A stretch of 64,000 nucleotides of DNA from an uncultured Bacilli bacterium (GCA_947588685.1 CANPYM010000022.1:309-64308); one strand, 5' to 3'; shown: positions 53,150 through 64,000, counted from the first letter of the stretch. A program made the numbers and translations. The notes: generated by a model from the sequence alone, not told the origin.

Positions 53150-53170
53150 AAGGGATATTTAATCCCTTTT
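53148..53170. terminator. Bidirectional terminator between sigK and PFOR
   Basis: AAAAGGGAT-attta-ATCCCTTTT. Confidence 0.85.
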
Positions 53171-56100
53171 TTGTTGCTCTTTATCTAATTTTTCATAGTA
53201 ATTAAACGTTTTAATGGCGTTATCTTTATTAGCCTCTAATAGTTCACTTGCTTTATTAGGATTGATAACTTTTAACATATTGAATCTTGTTTGACTATTT
53301 AAAAACTCTTCATATAAATCAAAGTCAACATTCTTGCTATCAAGCGTGAAACCTGTTTCCGGATGCCTTCTAAAAGTTAGGAAATAACCCGAATTAGTAG
53401 CTAATTTTTCCATATCAACGCTATGTTCCATACCACCTTTAATACCGTGTGAAATACATGGCGTATAGGCAATTATAATAGCTGGTCCATTATATTCATT
53501 AGCTTCTTTAAAGGCTTTAACAACTTGCATTGGATTAGCTCCTAAAGATACTTGCGCTACATAGACATGTGGATAAGCCATCGCAATACGAGCTAAATCT
53601 TTTTTGTTTGTTTTCTTACCGGTTGATGCGAATGATGCAATAGCGCCTTTGGGACTAGCTTTAGATGATTGGCCACCCGTATTAGAATATACTTGACTAT
53701 CTAAAACTAAAATTTTGATATTATCTGAACTTGCAAGGACATGGTCAATACCACTAAAGCCGATATCATAAGCCCATCCATCCCCACCGATACACCAAAT
53801 ATTACGAGTGGTTATATAATCTTTCAATTCTAATAATTCTTGTGGTAGATTATCGGTTAGATTGTCATAAACTTCTTTAGTATTTTCATAACTTTCAGGA
53901 TTGTCTAACCATTTTTTAAATAAGGCACTATTTTCATTATCCATATTTTGTTCCATCAAGCTAGCAATACGCTTCCGCATAATATTATTAGCAACAAGCA
54001 TACCATAACCATATTCAGCATTATCTTCAAATAAACTACTAGCCCAAGGAACAGCATAAGGAGTTGAAGGCGCACTACCACCATAGATTGATGAACAGCC
54101 AGTCGCATTAGCAATAATCAAGTGTTCACCAAATAATTGGGTTAATAGCTTAATATAAGCTGGTTCCCCACATCCGGCACAAGCCCCTGAAAAGGCAAAT
54201 TTAGGCTTAACAAATTGACTATTTTTCGTCGTATAAATATTATCAATTGACTTTGGCTTAATGTTATTATCTAGATATTCAAATATATCTTGTTCTTTAG
54301 GATTTATCTTATCCATAATAAGAGCTTTATTAGAACGCATACCTGGACAATTATTAACACATACCCCACAACCAGTACAATTAGCTACACATACACTAAC
54401 AATATAATAATAATTCATACCGATAGCTTTAACGCATCGCTTTTGAATCTCTTCTGGAGCCTGCTTATACTCTTCTTCATCTAATAAGAAAGGTCTAATC
54501 ACACCATGTGGACAATATAAAGAACATTGATTACAATTAGAACAATTTTCTTTAATCCATGATGGCGTTAAAGAAGTTATATATCTTTTCTCCGTAGCAC
54601 TTGTTCCACTTTCAAAAGCACCATCAGCCCGATTAACAAAATCAGATGTCTTTAAAGTATCACCTTTACGTTTCATAATCGTTTTAACAAGTGATAATGC
54701 TTCATCGTTAGAAGTAGCATCATAAGAACTGATAGTTACTGGCAATAGATTTTCACTAACTAAAGTAATAGCTTCATAATTAGCTTTAACAACACTATCA
54801 CCCTTACGAGCAAATTTCTTATCAATGCCATCTTTCATTTTATCTAAAGCGACATCATAAGGTAAAATATCCGTTAGTCGCATAATAGCACTTTCCATAA
54901 TGGTACTAATTTTACCCTTTAATCCTACTTGATCAGCTAAATCATAAGCATTAATCAAATATACTTTAGCTTTATTATCAATAAATAATTTTCTTAAATG
55001 ATGGTTTAACATTGCATCAACTTCATCAGTACTATGAATCGAATTGATAATGACTTTAGCACCTTCATCTAAATCCTCTAATAAATCGTATTCCTCTAAA
55101 TAACTATCTTTAGAAATAACAACTAATGATGGTTTAGAAACATAATAAGCCGAATGAATAGGATTAGGACTAAAGCGTAAATGACTGCATGTAACACCGC
55201 CACTTTTTTTCGAATCATATTGGAAATATCCTTGAACATAATCATCGGTATTATCGCCAATTAGTTTAATAATTGATTTAGAAGCACTAACCATACCATC
55301 ACTACCATAACCATATAATAGCCATTCACTACTTTTTTCTGTTTCAATTGGGATAGGTTTTAGACTTAAATTAGTTACATCATCAACAATACCAATTGTA
55401 AAATTATTAACAGGATTATCTAGCATATGATATACGGCATTGATATCAGCTGGGGTTGTATTTTTACTTGATAATCCATAACGACCACCAACAATGTTTA
55501 TATCTTTTCCTTTTAAGGCATTAACAATATCTAGATATAGTGGTTCACCATTACTACCTGCTTCTTTTGTTCGATCTAAAACAGCGATATTCTTAACCGT
55601 CTTTGGTAAAACATTTAGTAAGTATTTAGTACTAAATGGGCGATATAAATGAACTTCGATAAGGCCTAGATCATTATTATCTTTAATAACTTCTTTAATT
55701 GTTTCACAAACAGATCCCATCGCTACAATAACCTTGGTAGCATTAATTCCGCCATAATAGTTAAATGGCTTATAAGAAGTTCCTGCTTTAGCATTAATTT
55801 TTTCCATATAATCACTAACGATATCAGGTAAGGCATCATAATACTTATTTCGGGCTTCTGTTACTTGAAAGTAAATATCTTCATTTTGAGCTGTTCCATA
55901 AGTTAGTGGGTGATGCGGATTTAAAGCTCGATTACGGAATTTATTTAAAGCATCATAGTCTAACATATCAGCATAATCAGAAGCTTGTAAGACATCTATC
56001 TTTTGAATCTCATGACTTGTTCTAAAGCCATCAAAGAAATGCATAAAAGGTAGACTTGCTTTAATACTTGATAAGTGGGCAACCGCACTTAAATAAGCAG

Positions 56101-56539
56101 CATCTTGAACAGATGAAGAAGCTAACATAGCAAAACCTGTTGCCCGGCATGCATATATATCTTGATGATCGCCAAAAATACTTAGAGCATGCGTCGATAG
56201 ACTTCTTGCTGCTACATGGATAACACAAGGTAACATTTCCCCAGCTATTTTATACATATTAGGAATCATTAAAAGAAGACCTTGACTAGCCGTAAATGTC
56301 GTCGTTAAACATCCGGCCTTTAAAGAGCCATGAACAAATCCTGCTGCTCCGGCTTCACTTTGCATCTCAACGACTTTGACATGACTATTGAAAAGATTTA
56401 ATCTTTGATCACTCATCTCATCAACATGTTCAGCCATCGGACTAGATGGTGTTATAGGGTAAATACCAGCTACTTCTGTAAACATATATGCAGTATAACT
56501 GCAGGCTTCATTACCATCAACTGTCATTTTCTTTTTCAT
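53159..56539 (-). CDS. nifJ: Pyruvate:ferredoxin (flavodoxin) oxidoreductase
   Basis: YPITPSS, EMQSEAGAAG, TASQGLLL, FDGFRTSHE, GGRYGL, two 4Fe-4S motifs, FSGACAGCGE, NATGCSSIYGG and GGDGWAYDIG (TPP). Confidence 0.97.
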   Translation of the reverse strand: MKKKMTVDGNEACSYTAYMFTEVAGIYPITPSSPMAEHVDEMSDQRLNLFNSHVKVVEMQSEAGAAGFVHGSLKAGCLTTTFTASQGLLLMIPNMYKIAGEMLPCVIHVAARSLSTHALSIFGDHQDIYACRATGFAMLASSSVQDAAYLSAVAHLSSIKASLPFMHFFDGFRTSHEIQKIDVLQASDYADMLDYDALNKFRNRALNPHHPLTYGTAQNEDIYFQVTEARNKYYDALPDIVSDYMEKINAKAGTSYKPFNYYGGINATKVIVAMGSVCETIKEVIKDNNDLGLIEVHLYRPFSTKYLLNVLPKTVKNIAVLDRTKEAGSNGEPLYLDIVNALKGKDINIVGGRYGLSSKNTTPADINAVYHMLDNPVNNFTIGIVDDVTNLSLKPIPIETEKSSEWLLYGYGSDGMVSASKSIIKLIGDNTDDYVQGYFQYDSKKSGGVTCSHLRFSPNPIHSAYYVSKPSLVVISKDSYLEEYDLLEDLDEGAKVIINSIHSTDEVDAMLNHHLRKLFIDNKAKVYLINAYDLADQVGLKGKISTIMESAIMRLTDILPYDVALDKMKDGIDKKFARKGDSVVKANYEAITLVSENLLPVTISSYDATSNDEALSLVKTIMKRKGDTLKTSDFVNRADGAFESGTSATEKRYITSLTPSWIKENCSNCNQCSLYCPHGVIRPFLLDEEEYKQAPEEIQKRCVKAIGMNYYYIVSVCVANCTGCGVCVNNCPGMRSNKALIMDKINPKEQDIFEYLDNNIKPKSIDNIYTTKNSQFVKPKFAFSGACAGCGEPAYIKLLTQLFGEHLIIANATGCSSIYGGSAPSTPYAVPWASSLFEDNAEYGYGMLVANNIMRKRIASLMEQNMDNENSALFKKWLDNPESYENTKEVYDNLTDNLPQELLELKDYITTRNIWCIGGDGWAYDIGFSGIDHVLASSDNIKILVLDSQVYSNTGGQSSKASPKGAIASFASTGKKTNKKDLARIAMAYPHVYVAQVSLGANPMQVVKAFKEANEYNGPAIIIAYTPCISHGIKGGMEHSVDMEKLATNSGYFLTFRRHPETGFTLDSKNVDFDLYEEFLNSQTRFNMLKVINPNKASELLEANKDNAIKTFNYYEKLDKEQQKRD

Positions 56540-56570: not shown

Positions 56571-56604
56571 AAAAAAAGTAGTAGTTTAGATTGCAACTAC
56601 TACT
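56571..56604 (-). terminator. Terminator at the end of the T7SS locus
   Basis: AGTAGTAGTT-8 nt-AACTACTACT plus T run on the minus strand, overlapping the DUF4176 stop. Confidence 0.8.
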
Positions 56605-57542
56605 CCATTTTCATCAAACTTATAGTTAGCTAATGTTGTTTTTTTTTCCTTACGAGCTGTATTATCAGCTATAACAACGCCATTTTCATCAAATTCTATG
56701 TCTTTCAATATATCCCAATTACTTGGCTCTAACTCTGTTGACTCTCTTTTTTTATCATAAAAAGTTAAAAAGGGGTTTTTAACGGATAGCTTATCAGCTA
56801 TAACAACGCCATCTTCATCAAATTCATAATTAGAAGATGATGATGAATCCGCCGTTTCATCAGATATAACGATGCCGTCCTCATTAAATTTATATTTTGA
56901 ACTAGTTGGTGTTGATGAAGTTGCTGTACCATCAACTATAACAACGCCATTTTCATCAAACTTATATTTTGCAACAGTTTGTGATTGTGGTGCTGCAGAA
57001 CTATCAGATGTAACAACACCGTTTTCATCAAATTCATAATCTGATTTAGCTTGTAATTTAGTTGTAATTGTGCCGTCAGCTATAACAACGCCATTTTCAT
57101 CAAACTTATATTGGCCATTTGGTCTAACTTCAGCAGGTGCTGTGTTATCAACTATGACAACACCATTTTCATCAAATTTATAATTACTATCAGGTTTAAC
57201 TTCAGTAGATGCTGTATTATCAGCTACGACAACGCCATTTTCATCAAACTTATATTGGCCGCTTGTTCTAGTTTCAGTAGGTGCCGTATTATCAGCTACA
57301 ACAACACCGTTTTCATCAAACTTATATTGGCCGCTTGGTCTAGTTTCAGTAGGTGCCGTATTATCAGCTACAACAACGCCATTTTCGTCAAACTTATATT
57401 GGCCGCTTGGTCTAACTTCAGCAGATGCCGTATTATCAACTACGACAACACCGTTTTCATCAAATTTATATTTACTATCAGGTTTAACCTCAGTCAATGT
57501 CGTGCCATCAAAGACAACAACACCATTAGCGTCAAATTTGTA
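56586..57542 (-). repeat. Coding tandem repeat: 72-bp/24-aa period for units 1-10, irregular for 11-13
   Basis: Tyr codons start at 57542, 57470, 57398, 57326 and so on; units 3 and 4 differ at 4 of 72 nt. Confidence 0.95.
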
Positions 57543-57875
57543 ATTATTAGACTCTTCAACTCTAACCACTTCTTTTTTAACTGGTTTTTCTTGTTCTTTT
57601 GTAACTAAAGGTTTACCTGTTTTTAATAAACTAGTGTTTAGTTTTTTATATTCATCATTTTTATAGCCATCAAATATTACTTTTTTAACTGTTGCATGGT
57701 CAAAATGTAATGTATCATCTAAAGAACTAAGGCCATCTGGATATTTAACACCAACATAATTGCAATCAGTACTATTCTCTTGCTCTTGTAAATATCCAAT
57801 TATCATAATATCATCTTTATTATTTTTTATTGAACATATCGTTCCAATTGGTAGATATTTTCGACCCTTTGCCAT
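56586..57875 (-). CDS. DUF4176-domain protein with 13 YKFDENGVV repeats
   Basis: N-terminal YLPIGTICSIK....IMIIG....NYVGVKYPDG...FDHATVKKVIFDGY is the DUF4176 pattern; the C-terminal two-thirds is a repeat array. Confidence 0.85.
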   Translation of the reverse strand: MAKGRKYLPIGTICSIKNNKDDIMIIGYLQEQENSTDCNYVGVKYPDGLSSLDDTLHFDHATVKKVIFDGYKNDEYKKLNTSLLKTGKPLVTKEQEKPVKKEVVRVEESNNYKFDANGVVVFDGTTLTEVKPDSKYKFDENGVVVVDNTASAEVRPSGQYKFDENGVVVADNTAPTETRPSGQYKFDENGVVVADNTAPTETRTSGQYKFDENGVVVADNTASTEVKPDSNYKFDENGVVIVDNTAPAEVRPNGQYKFDENGVVIADGTITTKLQAKSDYEFDENGVVTSDSSAAPQSQTVAKYKFDENGVVIVDGTATSSTPTSSKYKFNEDGIVISDETADSSSSSNYEFDEDGVVIADKLSVKNPFLTFYDKKRESTELEPSNWDILKDIEFDENGVVIADNTARKEKKTTLANYKFDENGVVVAI

Positions 57876-57894
57876 ATATAAATCACACCCTTTT

Positions 57895-58206
57895 CTATTT
57901 TATAATTTCTCTTTGCTTTTCCACGGAATTAGTTGGCAATAAGCTGACACCGCCCGATAACTCATTTTCTACAGCGTTACATAAATTAATACTTTTATTT
58001 ATCCAACTACTCATATCAGATAACTCATTGTATATTTCATTAATTCTTTTAGTAAATTCATTATAACGAGAACGATACGAAAAGTCTGATGGGGCATATA
58101 GTCTTTGAGCTATACCCCTAGCATATCCTACATATGTTTTAGAACTATCAACACTAGATAAAACTACAGTTTCTAAAGAACTTCTATTTACAACTAATTT
58201 TGTCAT
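57895..58206 (-). CDS. WXG100-like helical hairpin protein (no canonical WXG)
   Basis: 103 aa, helix-turn(APSDFSY)-helix, SD AGGAG; last of the six-gene array. Confidence 0.6.
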   Translation of the reverse strand: MTKLVVNRSSLETVVLSSVDSSKTYVGYARGIAQRLYAPSDFSYRSRYNEFTKRINEIYNELSDMSSWINKSINLCNAVENELSGGVSLLPTNSVEKQREIIK

Positions 58207-58207
58207 A

Positions 58208-58495
58208 CTATCTCCTTACCTGATTTACGATTTCATCATAAGCATTCGCACAATTGATAAGATATTCTCCATACTTATACAAATCTTTAGCAAAATTCAT
58301 ATAAGTTGGCTTATTCCCTAGCACTGCTGCCGAATATTTTTCAGCAGTAGGTCCAACCCACTCTCGTGTTTCTGTAGGAATTTTTTCAAAACGTGTAAAC
58401 ATTTCGTTATATGTTAGCTTTAGCTCTTCAACTAGCTTTAGTATATCATCGCCACATTCACGAATTCTTTTAGTATCTACTTTTATCTCTTCCAT
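58208..58495 (-). CDS. WXG100-family protein
   Basis: 95 aa; IKVDT N-terminus, central WVG motif and C-terminal helix ..ANAYDE; SD AGGAGG. Confidence 0.85.
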   Translation of the reverse strand: MEEIKVDTKRIRECGDDILKLVEELKLTYNEMFTRFEKIPTETREWVGPTAEKYSAAVLGNKPTYMNFAKDLYKYGEYLINCANAYDEIVNQVRR

Positions 58496-58505
58496 ACGTC
58501 CTCCT

Positions 58506-58534
58506 AAAAAGAAAGACTAGCTGACTAGCTAATC
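58506..58534 (-). terminator. Internal terminator in the WXG100 array
   Basis: GATTAGCT-agtc-AGCTAGTC (one G-U) followed by TTTCTTTTT on the minus strand, between the 4th and 5th small genes. Confidence 0.75.
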
Positions 58535-58546
58535 CTCATAATTAAT

Positions 58547-58831
58547 CTACATCACGCTATTTATAGCTTTCTTAACATTAGAAATCTTTTGATTTATACT
58601 AGGAATACAAGTGTTTTGAAGAAAGTCTCTTTCAGCAACTAATCGATTATAAATAGAGTTAATCTTTCCTTCATCAGCTTTCGAATCATCTAAAGAGAAA
58701 CTACTATCGACTTTATCTTTTGACGATTCTAGAAGAGAAATAGCATTATTTAAATAACCGATCATTCGATAAATTTCATTCTTAAAATACTCATAATTTC
58801 CTTTATCGCGTATTAAATCTGATGTTTCCAT
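58547..58831 (-). CDS. WXG100-like small helical protein (Lap/YwqH-like candidate)
   Basis: 94 aa, two long amphipathic helices around FSLDD; 5 nt from the upstream stop. Confidence 0.55.
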   Translation of the reverse strand: METSDLIRDKGNYEYFKNEIYRMIGYLNNAISLLESSKDKVDSSFSLDDSKADEGKINSIYNRLVAERDFLQNTCIPSINQKISNVKKAINSVM

Positions 58832-58836
58832 TTATT

Positions 58837-59325
58837 CTATTTTGTTTCAGTGTAAACAGTGGAATTATCACTAAGTCCTGATGTTGAACTAGAAATATTT
58901 CCAGCAAAATTTGCAGAACTTGTTTTCCAAGCGTTTTCAACATCAGCTAATTTGTCAGAAAAAGCTAATAAATCGCTAATTAATGCACTACAATAGCTTT
59001 TTACAGATTCAACATAAGATACAACTGCTTGTTGTATTTCTTCACTTTTATAAGCACCTGATGCATCAGCGTTAGCATCGATTTCACCTATTTTTGCTTG
59101 TAAATTACTAACAGATGTTCTTATTGCTTCACGCATTGTAGGAACTTTAGCAGCATTAATACCAACGACATCTAAACCGCCGCCACCAAAAAGTGATCCT
59201 AGAGATCCTAAAATACCGCCACCATCTGCAGCTGTACGTGTAGCAGCTCTTCCATCCATTGCTGCTTGTGCAGCTTGTTTTGCATCAAATTCTGATACTG
59301 TTTGTGTTGCTTCCCAATTTGCCAT
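58837..59325 (-). CDS. WXG100-like protein with about 50-aa Ala/Gly-rich N-terminal extension
   Basis: 162 aa; extension ending GGGILGSLGSLFGGGG, then hairpin with GAYKS turn; SD AGGAGG. Confidence 0.65.
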   Translation of the reverse strand: MANWEATQTVSEFDAKQAAQAAMDGRAATRTAADGGGILGSLGSLFGGGGLDVVGINAAKVPTMREAIRTSVSNLQAKIGEIDANADASGAYKSEEIQQAVVSYVESVKSYCSALISDLLAFSDKLADVENAWKTSSANFAGNISSSTSGLSDNSTVYTETK

Positions 59326-59336
59326 AATTATCCTCC

Positions 59337-59645
59337 TTACTCACCAATCATATTTTCGTCCTGATTATAATAATAGTTTGCTAACTCTGATAGTCTTGCA
59401 TCCAAATCATTATACTCAGCCGTTAAATCGCTTTTTATTAAATCGATTTCAGCTTGTAACTGCTCCTTAAATCTGTCACATGAAACTCCTACCCAACCAC
59501 CGTCAACAGCTGTTACGATATTTTGGTATTCAGTATCAAGGTTTTCTGACATTGTTGTTAAAATTTGAGTTTTTAAATTTTCTTTATAAGTGTTCATTCC
59601 TGAACTTGATACACCAATGTCTAAATCTCCAATTCCTAGACTCAT
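59337..59645 (-). CDS. WXG100-family protein
   Basis: 102 aa, central GGWVGVSCDRF and C-terminal YYNQD (YxxxD); SD AGGAGG. Confidence 0.85.
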   Translation of the reverse strand: MSLGIGDLDIGVSSSGMNTYKENLKTQILTTMSENLDTEYQNIVTAVDGGWVGVSCDRFKEQLQAEIDLIKSDLTAEYNDLDARLSELANYYYNQDENMIGE

Positions 59646-59646
59646 A

Positions 59647-60003
59647 CTACAATTCCTCCTTCATATTTTCTTTTTGACGGACTTGCCTTTGAGCCTCATT
59701 TATCAATTCAGTAGCTTCAACTTCAAGCTTACTATAATTGCCTTTTAATTTTAACAAGTCGTCATTATAAACTAAGATATTTTGGTTAACAGTATTTATA
59801 GTTGGGACAAGTTGCTCAAACTTGCTTCGAAATAAATCAGCTTCAGAACTAACATAATATTCTCTCGTTTCACGAATTAACATTTCAATAGCATTAGTTA
59901 TCCGCTTACTTTTTTCCGCATAGTCTATAACATCAACCATAAGCTTATCTAGTTTCGATGTCGATACACCAAGTGTATTAGAGCTATTATCCACTACTAT
60001 CAC
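59647..60003 (-). CDS. WXG100-like protein (Y-x-S turn)
   Basis: Helix-EYYVSSEADLF-helix and C-terminal YSKLE (YxxxE). The true start may be GTG 59994 behind AGGTGA. Confidence 0.7.
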   Translation of the reverse strand: MIVVDNSSNTLGVSTSKLDKLMVDVIDYAEKSKRITNAIEMLIRETREYYVSSEADLFRSKFEQLVPTINTVNQNILVYNDDLLKLKGNYSKLEVEATELINEAQRQVRQKENMKEEL

Positions 60004-60034
60004 CTACTATTAAATTAAACTATCTTACATTTTT

Positions 60035-60063
60035 ATATTAACATAATATATTACTAATTTCAA
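60035..60063 (-). promoter_or_regulatory. SigA promoter of the WXG100 array
   Basis: TTGAAA-17 nt-TAATAT with TG extended -10 on the minus strand. Confidence 0.65.
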
Positions 60064-60097
60064 CATTTTTTTGACAAATTTAACCCATTTTAGGTAC

Positions 60098-61771
60098 TTA
60101 TTTACGATTTGTTAGAACTACATTAGTAGGTTTCATACCAACATTTTGAGTGTTATATTTTGTTAAGTATGAAATTTCATCATCACTTAAAAGATTACTA
60201 GTAGATAAATTTTCATCCGACATATAGTAATTATTGTACATCGTAAACACATCTTGTGATGTAATACCTAATTGCTGAGCAAGACATCCGAAGAAAGTTT
60301 GTTGCACATTGTCATAAAAAGCAATAAAATCACTATTATACTCATCTCTAGAACTATCGTTATATTTAACTAAACGATTCATATCATTTTCAAATAGTTT
60401 TATTAATCCAAAAATTGACTCTAAACTTTCTCCTTTATTCCCTATAGCATCTAATAAATTAGTATAGAAAATTTTAGTCAAAGTTTGAGCGGCTGAACTA
60501 TATAGGGAAAACTCGTATTTATATGGCACTTCTATCTGACAATTATCATAAAAGGCTTTATTTCGACCATAAATTATTTCAAAGGAAAACATCATCTTTA
60601 TTATTTCTTCGACGTCTTCTTCACTATTTGCATTAAAAATTCTTAAAAACTTATTTAAATCAGGTTGCAAAGATAATCTTGGAATAGTTAGTTCAGATAC
60701 ATCATCACGGAGAATAGTAGCTAAAGTTAATGTATCAATAGTTTTCATATATTCGGGATAAACAATATTTTCTCCACTAACATCATTATATACATTCATC
60801 AACTTTTCAGCGCATCCCTCAACAAACCATTGATAGCTTAAAGCATTAACTGGTAAATCAGCCCATTCATAATATATTCCCGTGTTTTTTGTGTATCCTT
60901 CATGTTCTTTTTCTTCATTACTGCTCGCTTGAATTAAATGGTTAGTCTCATGACATGCTACTTCATAAAAGAAATCCATGCCGCCAAAAACTTCAATAAC
61001 ATTTATATTCAATGACAATATCTTATCATCTTCAACCATTACCCCATTACCTTGACCATGATTACACAAAATTTTTAATTCCTGTAAATTTTTATCAAGT
61101 TGATTAACATCAATATTTTGTTCATAATCTTCAGCCAAATTTTTATTAATTGTCGCTACAACGGCATTAAAAGCTTGTTCAAAATACGAACTTGAAAATT
61201 CTTCATATAATGCCCCAGTATAAGAAGCCATATATGCATTGTTATTATTAACAACTATTTCATGTAATTTATTAGCATCAACTTGACGATTGTTAATAAT
61301 TTTTAAATCACTACTTGATTCATATTCAACCATTGAATTATATTTGGCTAGAGCATCTTGGATATGAAAAAATTCACTATTTGCATAATTAGTATGATGC
61401 CCTGAAAGCAAATTCCTAAATGCCGACGTATCAACACCATTAAAATTTATTTGTTGATTATACATTTCTAAATTAGCAGTGCTTGCAGTATCCTCTTGTG
61501 GCTGAATAGGTGTAGCAGTAGAACTTGTCATCATAGAAGAGTCATCTACTGCTACTTCAATATTTTGATTATTTTCATCAATAGTATTTCCCTCATTATC
61601 ATATATTTCTACATAATATGATCCTTCATCAGCCCGAGCTGATACTTTAAAAACAGTTGCCGTTGAAACACTAAAGCCAATTATTGTAGCTAGCGAAATA
61701 GCCATTAATTTAATCCTTTTAGTTCTATTTTTAAACCATTTTACATTTATATTTCTTATCACTATAATCAC
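60098..61771 (-). CDS. Secreted or N-anchored protein with HEXXH zinc-metalloprotease-like motif
   Basis: Basic and hydrophobic N-terminus ending ARA-DE; ACHETNH (60938-60952) and downstream FVEGCAE. Confidence 0.7.
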   Translation of the reverse strand: MIIVIRNINVKWFKNRTKRIKLMAISLATIIGFSVSTATVFKVSARADEGSYYVEIYDNEGNTIDENNQNIEVAVDDSSMMTSSTATPIQPQEDTASTANLEMYNQQINFNGVDTSAFRNLLSGHHTNYANSEFFHIQDALAKYNSMVEYESSSDLKIINNRQVDANKLHEIVVNNNNAYMASYTGALYEEFSSSYFEQAFNAVVATINKNLAEDYEQNIDVNQLDKNLQELKILCNHGQGNGVMVEDDKILSLNINVIEVFGGMDFFYEVACHETNHLIQASSNEEKEHEGYTKNTGIYYEWADLPVNALSYQWFVEGCAEKLMNVYNDVSGENIVYPEYMKTIDTLTLATILRDDVSELTIPRLSLQPDLNKFLRIFNANSEEDVEEIIKMMFSFEIIYGRNKAFYDNCQIEVPYKYEFSLYSSAAQTLTKIFYTNLLDAIGNKGESLESIFGLIKLFENDMNRLVKYNDSSRDEYNSDFIAFYDNVQQTFFGCLAQQLGITSQDVFTMYNNYYMSDENLSTSNLLSDDEISYLTKYNTQNVGMKPTNVVLTNRK

Positions 61772-61812
61772 CTAATACAATTTTAACACATAAAGTTAAT
61801 AAACTTCATCTT

Positions 61813-62067
61813 TTAAATCAAAACAATGCTACTCCCATTTCTTATATTTGTTTCTCTAATCAATTGGTTTGTACCATATATTTCGCCTGTTTCACGATCG
61901 TATAATCTTACTTTATCATCAGGATTATATTCACCGCTTGTAAGTTCAAAAACAGATTTTTTTAGAAGAATTATTACGTTACATATCCTAGCATTTATGG
62001 GTAAATATACATTATATATTTCGTCAATTGTAGGTACATATAAACGAACGGCAAATTTATCATTCAT
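61813..62067 (-). CDS. Ubiquitin-like T7SS accessory protein YukD/EsaB
   Basis: 84 aa; beta-grasp pattern VRLYVP...YNVYLP...I..V...L...LIRETNIRNGSSIVLI; overlaps the essC stop. Confidence 0.8.
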   Translation of the reverse strand: MNDKFAVRLYVPTIDEIYNVYLPINARICNVIILLKKSVFELTSGEYNPDDKVRLYDRETGEIYGTNQLIRETNIRNGSSIVLI

Positions 62068-64000
62068 TTTCTTCTTCCTCCTCAACCATGTATTTTATAA
62101 TTGTATGATTTCCTTTAACGATTGAATAACCAATGCAAGGGAAATTCATTTTTCTTTCTTCAATAGTAATATTTGGAACATTAATAACCAACTGATTAGC
62201 AGCATCTTCGGCTAACCATATACCAGTTGAATTATCAACGTTAGATTGATACCACAAATCAACTTGAATATTTTTATAAGATGATAACACATCTATCAAA
62301 ACCACTTTTGCATTATTAATTGAGGTAATATTAGAAAATAATCTATTTAATAAATCCTTACTATTGTTATTTAAATACTTTTTATAGGCACCAATTCCCA
62401 AGAAAAAGTAAACTGTAACATCACTAGAATCTCTACCCTTTACAATTTCGTTATTAACTTTAACAAGATTACTGTCATAGTTGTCTTTATAACATTCTAC
62501 ATTTTCAATATCCTTTTCATAAGCTTGAACAAAATCAAATACTTTTACCTTTGTATTTTCCAGTTTTGAGCATATCCTTATAAGTGAATTAATAAAACTC
62601 ATTCGTTCAGGCGACATAGCATTAGTTACAATTTGGGTAAATGTATTGGTACTAAAGTCAAAATTAACTATTTCCTTTGTCGTTATACTATAACCAATTG
62701 GTACTTCTTTAAGATCTGTTAGTTTATCATAGAATTCACTAGCAATCACTTTGTTTGGTATTGTAGGTATACGTTTAGCCTTAATTTTATAAGCGTTATT
62801 ATATGTTTCACTAGCCCGCATAATAAATTCGTTTATTTGCTCTTTGGCTACATAGAAAGCTGTTTGAAATTCATATATTCCCTTATCCAAGAAACAAAGT
62901 CCACGGCCAAAAAATTTAGATGGAAATAGACCCTTTGGAGCACCTAGTTGGTTTCTATAATCCTCATCGTTTGGTAATTGTAGACAAAGTTTATTAGGGA
63001 AATTTTGTACTTGTCTAGATTTAAGAGTTAAAGGTGAAAGTTCACTTATAATAAATACTAATCCATATCTTGAACCATCACGATATATAGTATATAAGCT
63101 TTCAGCAAAACGTCCATACGTCTCTGTAAATACCTCTAAATTATTAATTATCGTCACAATTAAAGGTAACTTTTTATCATTGTGTTTAATATATTCTTCA
63201 TAACTACCACCAAAATCAGACATCATTTCTTTACGACGATCTAATTCTTTAAAAAGCATATCAAATATGTCATATACTTTATTTTCTTCATCGATTGTTG
63301 CAATGTCACCAATATGAGGCATCTTATTAAATATTTTTAACGATTCTGTTCCACAATCCACAATATAAAAATTAACTTCAGATGGAGTATGATCAGTAAT
63401 TGTAGATAGAAGAATGGTTGTAATTAAGTTTTCTTTACCACTACCTTGTTTACCTATAATTAAAGTATTACCTTCGTGGGTTAGGTTAAGGTGAAGAAGA
63501 TTTTGCTCTTGTGACGCTGGAACATCATATTCTCCAATGACTGGGTCAATAACATATGGTTGCTTTTGGTAATCATATTTAGTTTTCAAATTAGGGACAA
63601 AAATATTAGCTGGTATGGCATCTAGCCATAATTTATTGGAAACAATATTTTCTTTAACACCCAAATCATAAATATATTTAACAATATTAGTAAGTTGATC
63701 ACCTAAATCTTCAACAGGTGTATCATTTTTTACATTTTCTTTAGCACTCTTGATGATAGTTCCTGAATCATCGATAAAGTTGATTGAGTCGTCAACTTTT
63801 TTAACAATTTTATCACTTGGAATGTATTTGGCTCCAGCCCAACCTGATTGTCCTTTATCAAAAAAGTCATCATATCCTACCTGTAAGTAGAAACGTCCTG
63901 CTTCTTTAATACTTGCTGCATCTGGTTTCTTCAACATTTCCATACTGTCGCCACGATCCTGAACTTTAAGGCAAACCTTAAATTTAGAGTTAGACCATAT
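62060..64000 (-). CDS. essC: Type VII secretion FtsK/SpoIIIE ATPase EssC/YukB (5' truncated by window edge)
   Basis: Frame open to the window end (IWSNSKFKVCLKVQDRGDSMEML, end of ATPase D1); AGRFYLQVG, WLDAIP, GEYDVPASQEQ, GKQGSGK, YIVDCG, ELDRRK and GRGL. Confidence 0.93.
   Translation of the reverse strand: MWSNSKFKVCLKVQDRGDSMEMLKKPDAASIKEAGRFYLQVGYDDFFDKGQSGWAGAKYIPSDKIVKKVDDSINFIDDSGTIIKSAKENVKNDTPVEDLGDQLTNIVKYIYDLGVKENIVSNKLWLDAIPANIFVPNLKTKYDYQKQPYVIDPVIGEYDVPASQEQNLLHLNLTHEGNTLIIGKQGSGKENLITTILLSTITDHTPSEVNFYIVDCGTESLKIFNKMPHIGDIATIDEENKVYDIFDMLFKELDRRKEMMSDFGGSYEEYIKHNDKKLPLIVTIINNLEVFTETYGRFAESLYTIYRDGSRYGLVFIISELSPLTLKSRQVQNFPNKLCLQLPNDEDYRNQLGAPKGLFPSKFFGRGLCFLDKGIYEFQTAFYVAKEQINEFIMRASETYNNAYKIKAKRIPTIPNKVIASEFYDKLTDLKEVPIGYSITTKEIVNFDFSTNTFTQIVTNAMSPERMSFINSLIRICSKLENTKVKVFDFVQAYEKDIENVECYKDNYDSNLVKVNNEIVKGRDSSDVTVYFFLGIGAYKKYLNNNSKDLLNRLFSNITSINNAKVVLIDVLSSYKNIQVDLWYQSNVDNSTGIWLAEDAANQLVINVPNITIEERKMNFPCIGYSIVKGNHTIIKYMVEEEEENE

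Follow-up and report, generated by a model that had tools for sequence, protein, structure and literature searches.

An EssC-centred type VII secretion locus of unusual architecture with six conserved small proteins in an uncultured Bacilli lineage

Which kind of type VII secretion system (T7SS) does a locus encode that joins the motor ATPase EssC to a run of six small genes? The question is raised by ten co-oriented minus-strand open reading frames (ORFs) at positions 56586-64000 of a 64,000-nt stretch of DNA (the window; contig C22:309-64308) from an uncultured Bacilli bacterium, a small-genome gut bacterium whose assembly is 88.7% complete and comprises 30 contigs. The original prediction made from this sequence had taken the locus for a T7SSb system, the class known from S. 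aureus and B. subtilis, carrying an array of six WXG100 genes. We find that it belongs to a conserved cassette that is not a canonical T7SSb and fits none of the published subtypes T7SSc-j by gene content. On balance, we regard it as probably, though by no means certainly, a lineage-specific T7SS variant made of EssC, a small ubiquitin-like protein (Ubl) and two triads of small helical proteins, the triads being bundled and exported. The predicted fold of Ubl, the matches of two of the small proteins (s2 and s5) to EsxA, and the synteny of the locus across genomes support this reading.

A compact ten-gene operon

The features of the locus are as follows, the small genes being numbered s1 to s6 in operon order and assigned to two proposed triads, A and B.

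62060..64000, minus strand: EssC motor ATPase, of which the C-terminal 646 aa lie in the window (TIGR03928; Pfam FHA and FtsK_SpoIIIE)
61813..62067, minus strand: 84-aa ubiquitin-like protein, EsaB/YukD-like by AlphaFold2 model and Foldseek
60098..61771, minus strand: 557-aa HEXXH protein with N-terminal signal or anchor (invariant HExxH and Glu)
59647..60003, minus strand: s1, 118-aa small helical protein, proposed triad A (positional orthologues)
59337..59645, minus strand: s2, 102-aa WXG100-like protein, proposed triad A (WxG, EsxA match)
58837..59325, minus strand: s3, 162-aa helical protein, proposed triad A (family alignment)
58547..58831, minus strand: s4, 94-aa small helical protein, proposed triad B (conserved orthologues)
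58208..58495, minus strand: s5, 95-aa WXG100-like protein, proposed triad B (WxG, EsxA match)
57895..58206, minus strand: s6, 103-aa small helical protein, proposed triad B (conserved orthologues)
56586..57875, minus strand: 429-aa DUF4176-repeat protein (Pfam DUF4176; domain at about nt 57645-57857)
58512..58537, minus strand: terminator-like hairpin with an 11-pair stem, in the 51-nt gap between s4 and s5
56575..56606, minus strand: intrinsic terminator at the operon end, a 12-pair stem followed by a T-run

All the genes named in the original prediction are present here, on the minus strand and closed by the terminator. They leave little intergenic space: essC and the Ubl gene overlap by 8 nt, and most of the small genes lie 1-19 nt apart. 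The s4/s5 gap is the only sizeable one within the small-gene run, and its hairpin could attenuate transcription of s5, s6 and the DUF4176 gene. Directly downstream of the operon, a 1126-aa ORF (53159-56539, minus strand) that by eye resembles pyruvate:ferredoxin oxidoreductase marks the cassette boundary.

Conservation and modularity of the cassette

EssC, Ubl and s1 to s6 are syntenic in 10 loci that we fetched from other metagenome-assembled genomes (MAGs) of at least six genera. The features of the locus go far beyond chance; the entire block is found again, with its gene order kept, in other genomes. The order EssC-Ubl-HEXXH-s1-s2-s3-s4-s5-s6-DUF4176 is identical in loci L009, L011, L012 and L018, and an eleventh locus (L010), whose contig ends upstream, keeps HEXXH, s1 to s6 and DUF4176 in the same arrangement. 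Loci of this L009-L012/L018 type were located via the HEXXH family, in uncultured Bacilli and Bacillota MAGs of rabbit, human and other origin, in keeping with the uncultured lineage originally proposed. The most distant small-protein orthologues share 18-30% identity with those of the window. The cassette is flanked by unrelated housekeeping genes that differ between genomes; the neighbours in locus L005, for instance, match the Pfam families FtsH, FemAB, MurJ-like and PAP2.

Five further loci from other genera, identified via the s3 family, encode EssC, Ubl and all six small proteins and have no HEXXH gene; four of the five (L044-L047) also lack DUF4176. The conserved unit is therefore EssC plus Ubl plus the six small proteins, the HEXXH protein and the long DUF4176 protein being optional. 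One of the four, L045:664-7644 (contig C2 of genome G034), carries neither optional gene and displays the order EssC-Ubl-s4-s5-s6-s1-s2-s3. This permutation suggests that s1-s6 are organised as two movable triads, s1-s2-s3 and s4-s5-s6, each including one WXG-motif protein.

Apparent absence of standard T7SSb partners and toxins

We surveyed 151 genomes of the same order, covering 86 genera and 0.6-1.6 Mb in size, 150 of them at least 90% complete and most above 92%, with B. subtilis as positive control for each search for EssC, EssB, EsaA and EssA. EssC lies above cut-off in 78 of the 151, often in two or three copies. By contrast, the pseudokinase membrane protein EssB/YukC (PF10140) is above cut-off in none of these genomes, nor in any of seven genomes with related loci, and the large polytopic protein EsaA/YueB (TIGR03929, N-terminal model) is above cut-off in none of the 151, its sub-threshold matches of 50-73 bits falling on ORFs of about 650 aa that do not adjoin the listed essC matches. 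EssA, a short and poorly conserved protein (PF10661), yields marginal matches of 24-27 bits in 8 of the 151 genomes, mostly within ORFs of about 450-600 aa, and no match in the source genome. A lineage with EssC in 78 genomes and with EssB and EsaA above cut-off in none does not sustain the T7SSb assignment.

The missing partners or toxins might have lain beyond position 64000. Full-length EssC, of 1534 aa, reaches C22 position 66972, its TTG start codon lying 276 bp short of where the contig stops, and in other loci the genes upstream are housekeeping ones. The original statement that the locus has no LXG toxin-immunity pair holds: none lies nearby, and no LXG domain is found at cut-off in six cassette genomes.

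The EssC motor and its ubiquitin-like partner

On NCBIfam TIGR03928 (T7_EssCb_Firm), whose cut-off is 778.4, the complete EssC reaches 922.5 bits; it also matches Pfam FHA (4.2e-8) and, over two stretches, FtsK_SpoIIIE (3.7e-47). It is of the T7SSb class, with FHA domains, two membrane helices and three ATPase-like domains, of which only D1 has a canonical Walker A motif (GSTGSGKS). Read from the sequence, the N-terminal FHA domains seem to lack the phosphothreonine-binding Arg and Ser. Between the cassette EssC and a second EssC of the same genome, identity is 69% in D1 and 24-39% elsewhere, with 24% at the C-terminus, and the TIGR03928 match of the cassette EssC class ends near position 1147 of 1296. 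The original view of a type VII locus centred on EssC and unusual in architecture is supported, and the full protein passes the T7SSb EssC model.

For the 84-aa protein, AlphaFold2 on a 63-sequence alignment gave a model with a predicted local distance difference test (pLDDT) of 95 and a predicted template modelling (TM) score of 0.83. Foldseek with this model retrieved ubiquitin and Ubl folds, among them that of the ESX-5 component EccD5, whose Ubl domain gave TM-scores of 0.71-0.72. A Pfam scan found no significant match to YukD or any Ubl model, and the family, with at least 483 homologue clusters, is unannotated throughout. The model thus upholds the yukD-like label at the fold level only, as a predicted ubiquitin-like protein of the EsaB/YukD kind.

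Six distinct families of small proteins

Each of s1-s6 was aligned with positional orthologues from five other MAGs. The s2 family has an invariant G50-W51-x-G53 and an invariant D96 within a C-terminal (Y/W/M)xxxD motif, and its best match among solved structures is S. aureus EsxA (2vs0, E=1.1e-3). The s5 family has an invariant W46-x-G48, a best solved-structure match to EsxA (3zbh, E=1.7e-3), a match to NCBIfam ESAT6_2 (E=3.2e-3) and one to a WXG100-like paralogue on contig C1 of the source genome (E=2.1e-7). Pfam WXG100 gives 0.057 for s2 and 0.14 for s5, under the gathering cut-off. The WXG100 signal is weak in s1, where one of six members matches at E=0.026; s1 also matches a C1 WXG100-like paralogue (E=1.4e-3).

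Members of the s3 family vary in their N-terminal segment and have a Ser-rich tail that closes with a conserved Y-x-E at the extreme C-terminus; they show weak matches to T7SS_ESX_EspC (two of six, 7.6e-4) and LXG (one of six, 8.4e-3). The family occurs in 14 of the 151 genomes, at about 1-3 kb from EssC wherever an EssC match is listed on the same contig. A Gly-rich ILGSLGSLF stretch of s3 was considered as a conserved membrane-active helix and rejected, since nowhere else in the family alignment is conservation so low or are gaps so frequent. For s4, neither a family nor a solved structure gave a match, and for s6 only generic heptad repeats did; profile searches of s1, s3, s4 and s6 against PDB sequences likewise returned only generic coiled-coil or heptad matches.

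An all-against-all hhalign comparison of the six families revealed no significant pair, in a global mode that may understate local similarity. The best pair, s1-s3 (P=2.5e-4, 19% probability), was treated as unrelated. The six genes thus appear to represent six families with no detectable mutual relation, each kept gene-for-gene across genera. In most of them, amphipathic periodicity and a central Pro or Gly agree with a pair of helices joined by a turn in the middle, so the predicted helical hairpins rest on this periodicity together with weak profile matches. The 'six-gene WXG100 array' of the original prediction is accordingly reduced: W-x-G is conserved only in s2 and s5, s1 and s3 give weaker signals, s4 and s6 give none, and no family reaches the PF06013 cut-off. 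What stands is a locus rich in small helical proteins, six ORFs of 94-162 aa.

YxxxD/E is known as an export motif of mycobacterial substrates, and the C-terminal motif of s2 resembles it. The s2 motif and the terminal Y-x-E of s3 are each a possible export or docking signal.

An orphan HEXXH family

Among 14 homologues of the HEXXH protein, H274, E275, H278 and E318 are invariant and E322 nearly so. All homologues carry an N-terminal basic or charged stretch followed by one hydrophobic segment, and three have a lipobox (LLLTGC, LLLTAC and TLTGC), so the protein probably sits on the extracytoplasmic side, held to the membrane by an anchor or a lipid. It is probably zinc metallopeptidase-like, with a putative activity read from the motif; an HExxH joined by a downstream Glu ligand, for which E318 is a candidate, on a thermolysin-like fold characterises the gluzincin type of these enzymes. 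An exhaustive profile search delineates a uniform orphan family of about 486 representatives, all of 500-630 aa, which is present in 7 of the 151 genomes of the order.

Distant homologues in Clostridia (22-25% identity) occur at L013:1-10741, at about 9800-11600 in L015 and L016, and at L006:672-14090. A few genes separate one of them from a preceding RHS/YD-repeat protein, and two are in unrelated contexts. In L006/L007, the HEXXH gene belongs to a different T7SS-like locus, where a PP2C phosphatase and an FtsK-like ATPase of 1026 aa are encoded along with a WXG100 protein and proteins of the Sel1/TPR type. A role as universal T7SS partner was rejected, as the inspected Clostridia loci L013, L015 and L016 do not show a T7SS-like context and only L006/L007 does.

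A long DUF4176-repeat protein

The last gene matches Pfam DUF4176 (PF13780) over residues 7-77 (4.5e-18; 65.5 bits against a cut-off of 25). The domain is followed by about 13 hairpin-like units of the form Y-x-F-D-E-N-G-V-V with a 72-bp period and S/T/P-rich linkers. Copy number varies from about 5 to 14 among orthologues, and a conserved NPF...W-D/E-I-F element breaks the array. The repeat core Y-x-F-D-E-N-G (window 56589-57548) resembles hairpins of the YD/RHS type and MORN variants, and repeats of homologues have weak precomputed Pfam matches to PF25023, PF07661 and PF22400. This architecture is found in at least 290 homologue clusters of 235-470 aa. DUF4176 itself occurs in 46 of the 151 genomes, mostly in a small form and in many cases within a few kb of essC.

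DUF4176 proteins (Ltc) are toxin-specific stabilising chaperones whose target is a disordered amphipathic segment of the LXG toxin. They measure either 70-130 or 200-250 aa, and their genes adjoin those for an LXG toxin, Lap proteins or DUF443 immunity proteins (PMC12478183). Such chaperones are dimers that stabilise the client through an amphipathic helix. The 429-aa form lies outside both size classes, and the genome offers no LXG partner. The domain had been described as a recurrent T7SS neighbour; the domain call is clear from the Pfam match, and its status as a mere neighbour has been superseded, the family now being characterised as toxin chaperones (PMC12478183).

Other T7SS-related loci of the source genome

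A second, simpler EssC locus lies on contig C2:9070-15975 of the source genome (L024:5071-11976). It encodes EssC2 (1545 aa; 992.7 bits on TIGR03928), an 83-aa Ubl paralogue, two small helical proteins of 92 and 85 aa, the latter WXG100-like, and a 449-aa DUF4176 protein with a Pro/Glu-rich tail of about 370 aa; a gene that by eye is SpoIVA-like then follows on the opposite strand. On contig C1:118725-121055 (L023:2726-5056), a gene for a protein of about 500 aa without family match precedes a pair of WXG100-like genes (Pfam 2.2e-4 and 4e-4), and the module is a candidate T7SS substrate with partner proteins. An NlpC/P60-like domain at the end of the 500-aa protein was considered and dropped, having no support from Pfam or PDB searches.

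Comparison with known systems

With the T7SSb systems (Ess of S. aureus and Yuk/Yue of B. subtilis), the cassette shares an EssC that falls in their equivalog class and carries FHA domains at its N-terminus, a separate small Ubl, WXG100-like proteins, a DUF4176 gene and several small helical proteins downstream of essC, as are EsxB, EsxC and EsxD. Unlike them, its lineage has no EssB or EsaA above cut-off and only marginal EssA matches, and the cassette has neither LXG toxin nor immunity genes, its six small proteins are conserved rather than variable, its operon can include a Sec-exported HExxH protein, and its DUF4176 domain is fused to a long repeat tail.

Reduced-component variants of T7SS do exist: subtypes T7SSc-j, defined from RefSeq genomes by Garrett, Higginson & Palmer 2024, all have the ATPase, and most have Ubl and WXG100 proteins (PMC11217815). 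The cassette resembles them in the universal trio, with its ATPase (TsxC), Ubl (TsxB) and WXG100-like protein (TsxA), in having extra small WXG100-related proteins, and in the apparent absence of the T7SSb membrane parts. However, their subtype-specific partners, which include the kinase TsxD, the phosphatase TsxF, the FHA protein TsxJ, vWA, EspG-like and beta-propeller proteins and the Ig-rich TsxI (PMC11217815), are not found adjoining the cassette, whose flanks are housekeeping genes that differ between loci. In the simple T7SSg, an ATPase that lacks FHA is accompanied by a beta-propeller, while the FHA-bearing T7SSf combines a phosphatase with an FHA protein and an AAA+ ATPase; no such partner adjoins the cassette. 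Neither a metallopeptidase-like protein nor DUF4176 as a core gene nor a set of six helical proteins is part of any subtype from c to j; in the text that defines them, 'metallo', 'peptidase' and 'DUF4176' do not occur, and 'protease' appears only for MycP and in a reference title (PMC11217815). The layout was originally proposed to be undescribed, and in the literature searched we found no paper that describes this architecture or names subtypes beyond T7SSc-j.

Tripartite LXG-Lap complexes are export signals (10.1101/2023.07.21.550046). The cassette recalls the LXG-Lap1-Lap2/Ltc systems of S. intermedius in its co-encoded helical trios and in the DUF4176 protein of its operon, and also in that a longer, LXG/EspC-like member, s3, is preceded by two partners of about 100 aa. 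It differs in that s3 has no toxin domain, lies under the LXG cut-off and has no immunity gene beside it, and whereas Ltc genes lie between lap and toxin genes, the cassette DUF4176 gene stands at the operon end and encodes 429 aa with repeats.

Sec-exported hydrolases that serve T7SS include MycP (PMC11217815) and EssH of S. aureus (PMC13059805). The HEXXH protein is similar to both as a Sec-exported, hydrolase-like protein on the outside of the cell membrane that is encoded with a T7SS. However, MycP, anchored through its C-terminus, is a subtilisin, and EssH a CHAP-type wall hydrolase, whereas the HEXXH protein is optional, represents an orphan HExxH family whose anchor or lipobox is N-terminal, and has a predicted activity.

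Weighing the interpretations

In the lineage-specific variant that we favour, each triad would fold into an elongated helical bundle, in the manner of EsxA/EsxB-type dimers, LXG-Lap1-Lap2 or PE-PPE complexes, and the divergent C-terminal ATPase domain of the cassette EssC class would recognise this bundle and drive its export. s3 would be the longer, LXG/EspC-like member, its conserved C-terminal tail serving as a possible docking signal. Where present, the HExxH protein would work from the outer side of the membrane, either on substrates as they emerge or on the cell wall, as a positional analogue of MycP or EssH, while the N-terminal domain of the DUF4176 protein would probably hold a hydrophobic or amphipathic segment of a partner in the cytoplasm, as Ltc chaperones do.

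Several points weigh against this scheme. The two-triad idea is drawn from a single permuted locus, L045, and the terminator-like hairpin falls inside triad B, between s4 and s5, rather than between the triads. All WXG100 matches are under curated cut-offs, and the hairpin folds and triad complexes are inferred from sequence. Searches with hidden Markov models could miss divergent functional equivalents of EssB or EsaA. As to the HEXXH protein, AlphaFold2 from a 6-sequence alignment gave a poor model (pLDDT 58.7), which makes fold comparison unreliable, and Foldseek of this model against the PDB returned nothing below E=0.4; no peptidase family was found in Pfam (14 homologues), in NCBIfam or by profile search of PDB sequences. 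Its tie to secretion may also be loose, as the Clostridia homologues often lie outside a T7SS context.

The main rival is an ordinary EssC variant with a variable downstream module, comparable to S. aureus essC1-4, Listeria and group B Streptococcus, in which the small proteins would be Lap-like targeting factors or chaperones for toxins encoded elsewhere, for example on C1. We consider this possible, if rather unlikely. It would accommodate the co-variation of the EssC C-terminus with the downstream module, the membership of DUF4176 in a known toxin chaperone family (PMC12478183), and the C1 module, whose WXG100-like proteins s5 and s1 resemble and which adds a protein of about 500 aa. However, the six genes are not polymorphic but have one-to-one counterparts in at least nine genera, the six cassette genomes have no LXG protein, and most loci have neither toxin nor immunity gene beside the module. 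Moreover, the lineage has no EssB above cut-off; in T7SSb, EssB receives the LXG complexes, according to a preprint (bioRxiv 10.64898/2026.03.12.711312).

It is more doubtful that, in line with the multi-subunit assembly (pore, filament or scaffold) of the original prediction, s1-s6 make up two exported heterotrimers that assemble outside the membrane into a wall-spanning filament, conduit or pore, a structure that would substitute for the missing EssB and wall-spanning EsaA and that the HExxH protein, where present, would mature or trim. EspC has been reported to form filaments in mycobacteria, and s3 orthologues weakly resemble it; EsaA and EssB are above cut-off nowhere in the lineage survey, the six conserved small proteins look stoichiometric, and the operon encodes an extracytoplasmic HExxH protein. 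Against such an assembly, HEXXH is absent from half the loci, and the second EssC locus has two small helical proteins only, so that six are not needed for the machine to work. The incompleteness of the source assembly, together with a contig that ends 276 bp upstream of the essC start, might instead point to a canonical T7SSb whose essA, essB and esaA were lost from a fragmented MAG, but four intact loci (L009, L011, L012 and L018) have housekeeping genes upstream of essC, and the order-wide absence of EssB and EsaA above cut-off, where EssC is found in 78 genomes, effectively excludes this explanation. Equally improbable is a functionless, decaying remnant: reduced genomes of 0.6-1.6 Mb commonly lose systems, and a canonical Walker A is confined to EssC D1, yet EssC proteins normally have degenerate motifs in D2 and D3, and all ten ORFs are intact and closely coupled and keep their order from genus to genus where identity is low. 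Of the original interpretation as a whole, the EssC-centred, unusual, toxin-free and apparently undescribed character of the locus thus persists, while the WXG100 array and the T7SSb label do not.

Significance

How T7SSb substrates pass the membrane and the wall, and what EssB, EsaA and EssA contribute, is unsettled in the field. A lineage that has EssC and Ubl and appears to lack the standard membrane partners offers a natural minimal system in which the capacity of EssC alone, and the nature of any replacements, can be tested, and its two proposed movable triads would provide a toxin-free test case for the helical bundle as export signal. The long DUF4176-repeat proteins, with their at least 290 clusters, extend this family to an architecture beyond the two described size classes, and in these Bacilli they are tied to a secretion operon together with an orphan HExxH family of about 490 representatives. 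The practical value of these observations, which come from sequence analysis of uncultured gut bacteria, hinges on heterologous reconstitution. Should the extracellular assembly prove true, it would represent a structurally new way to cross the Gram-positive envelope.

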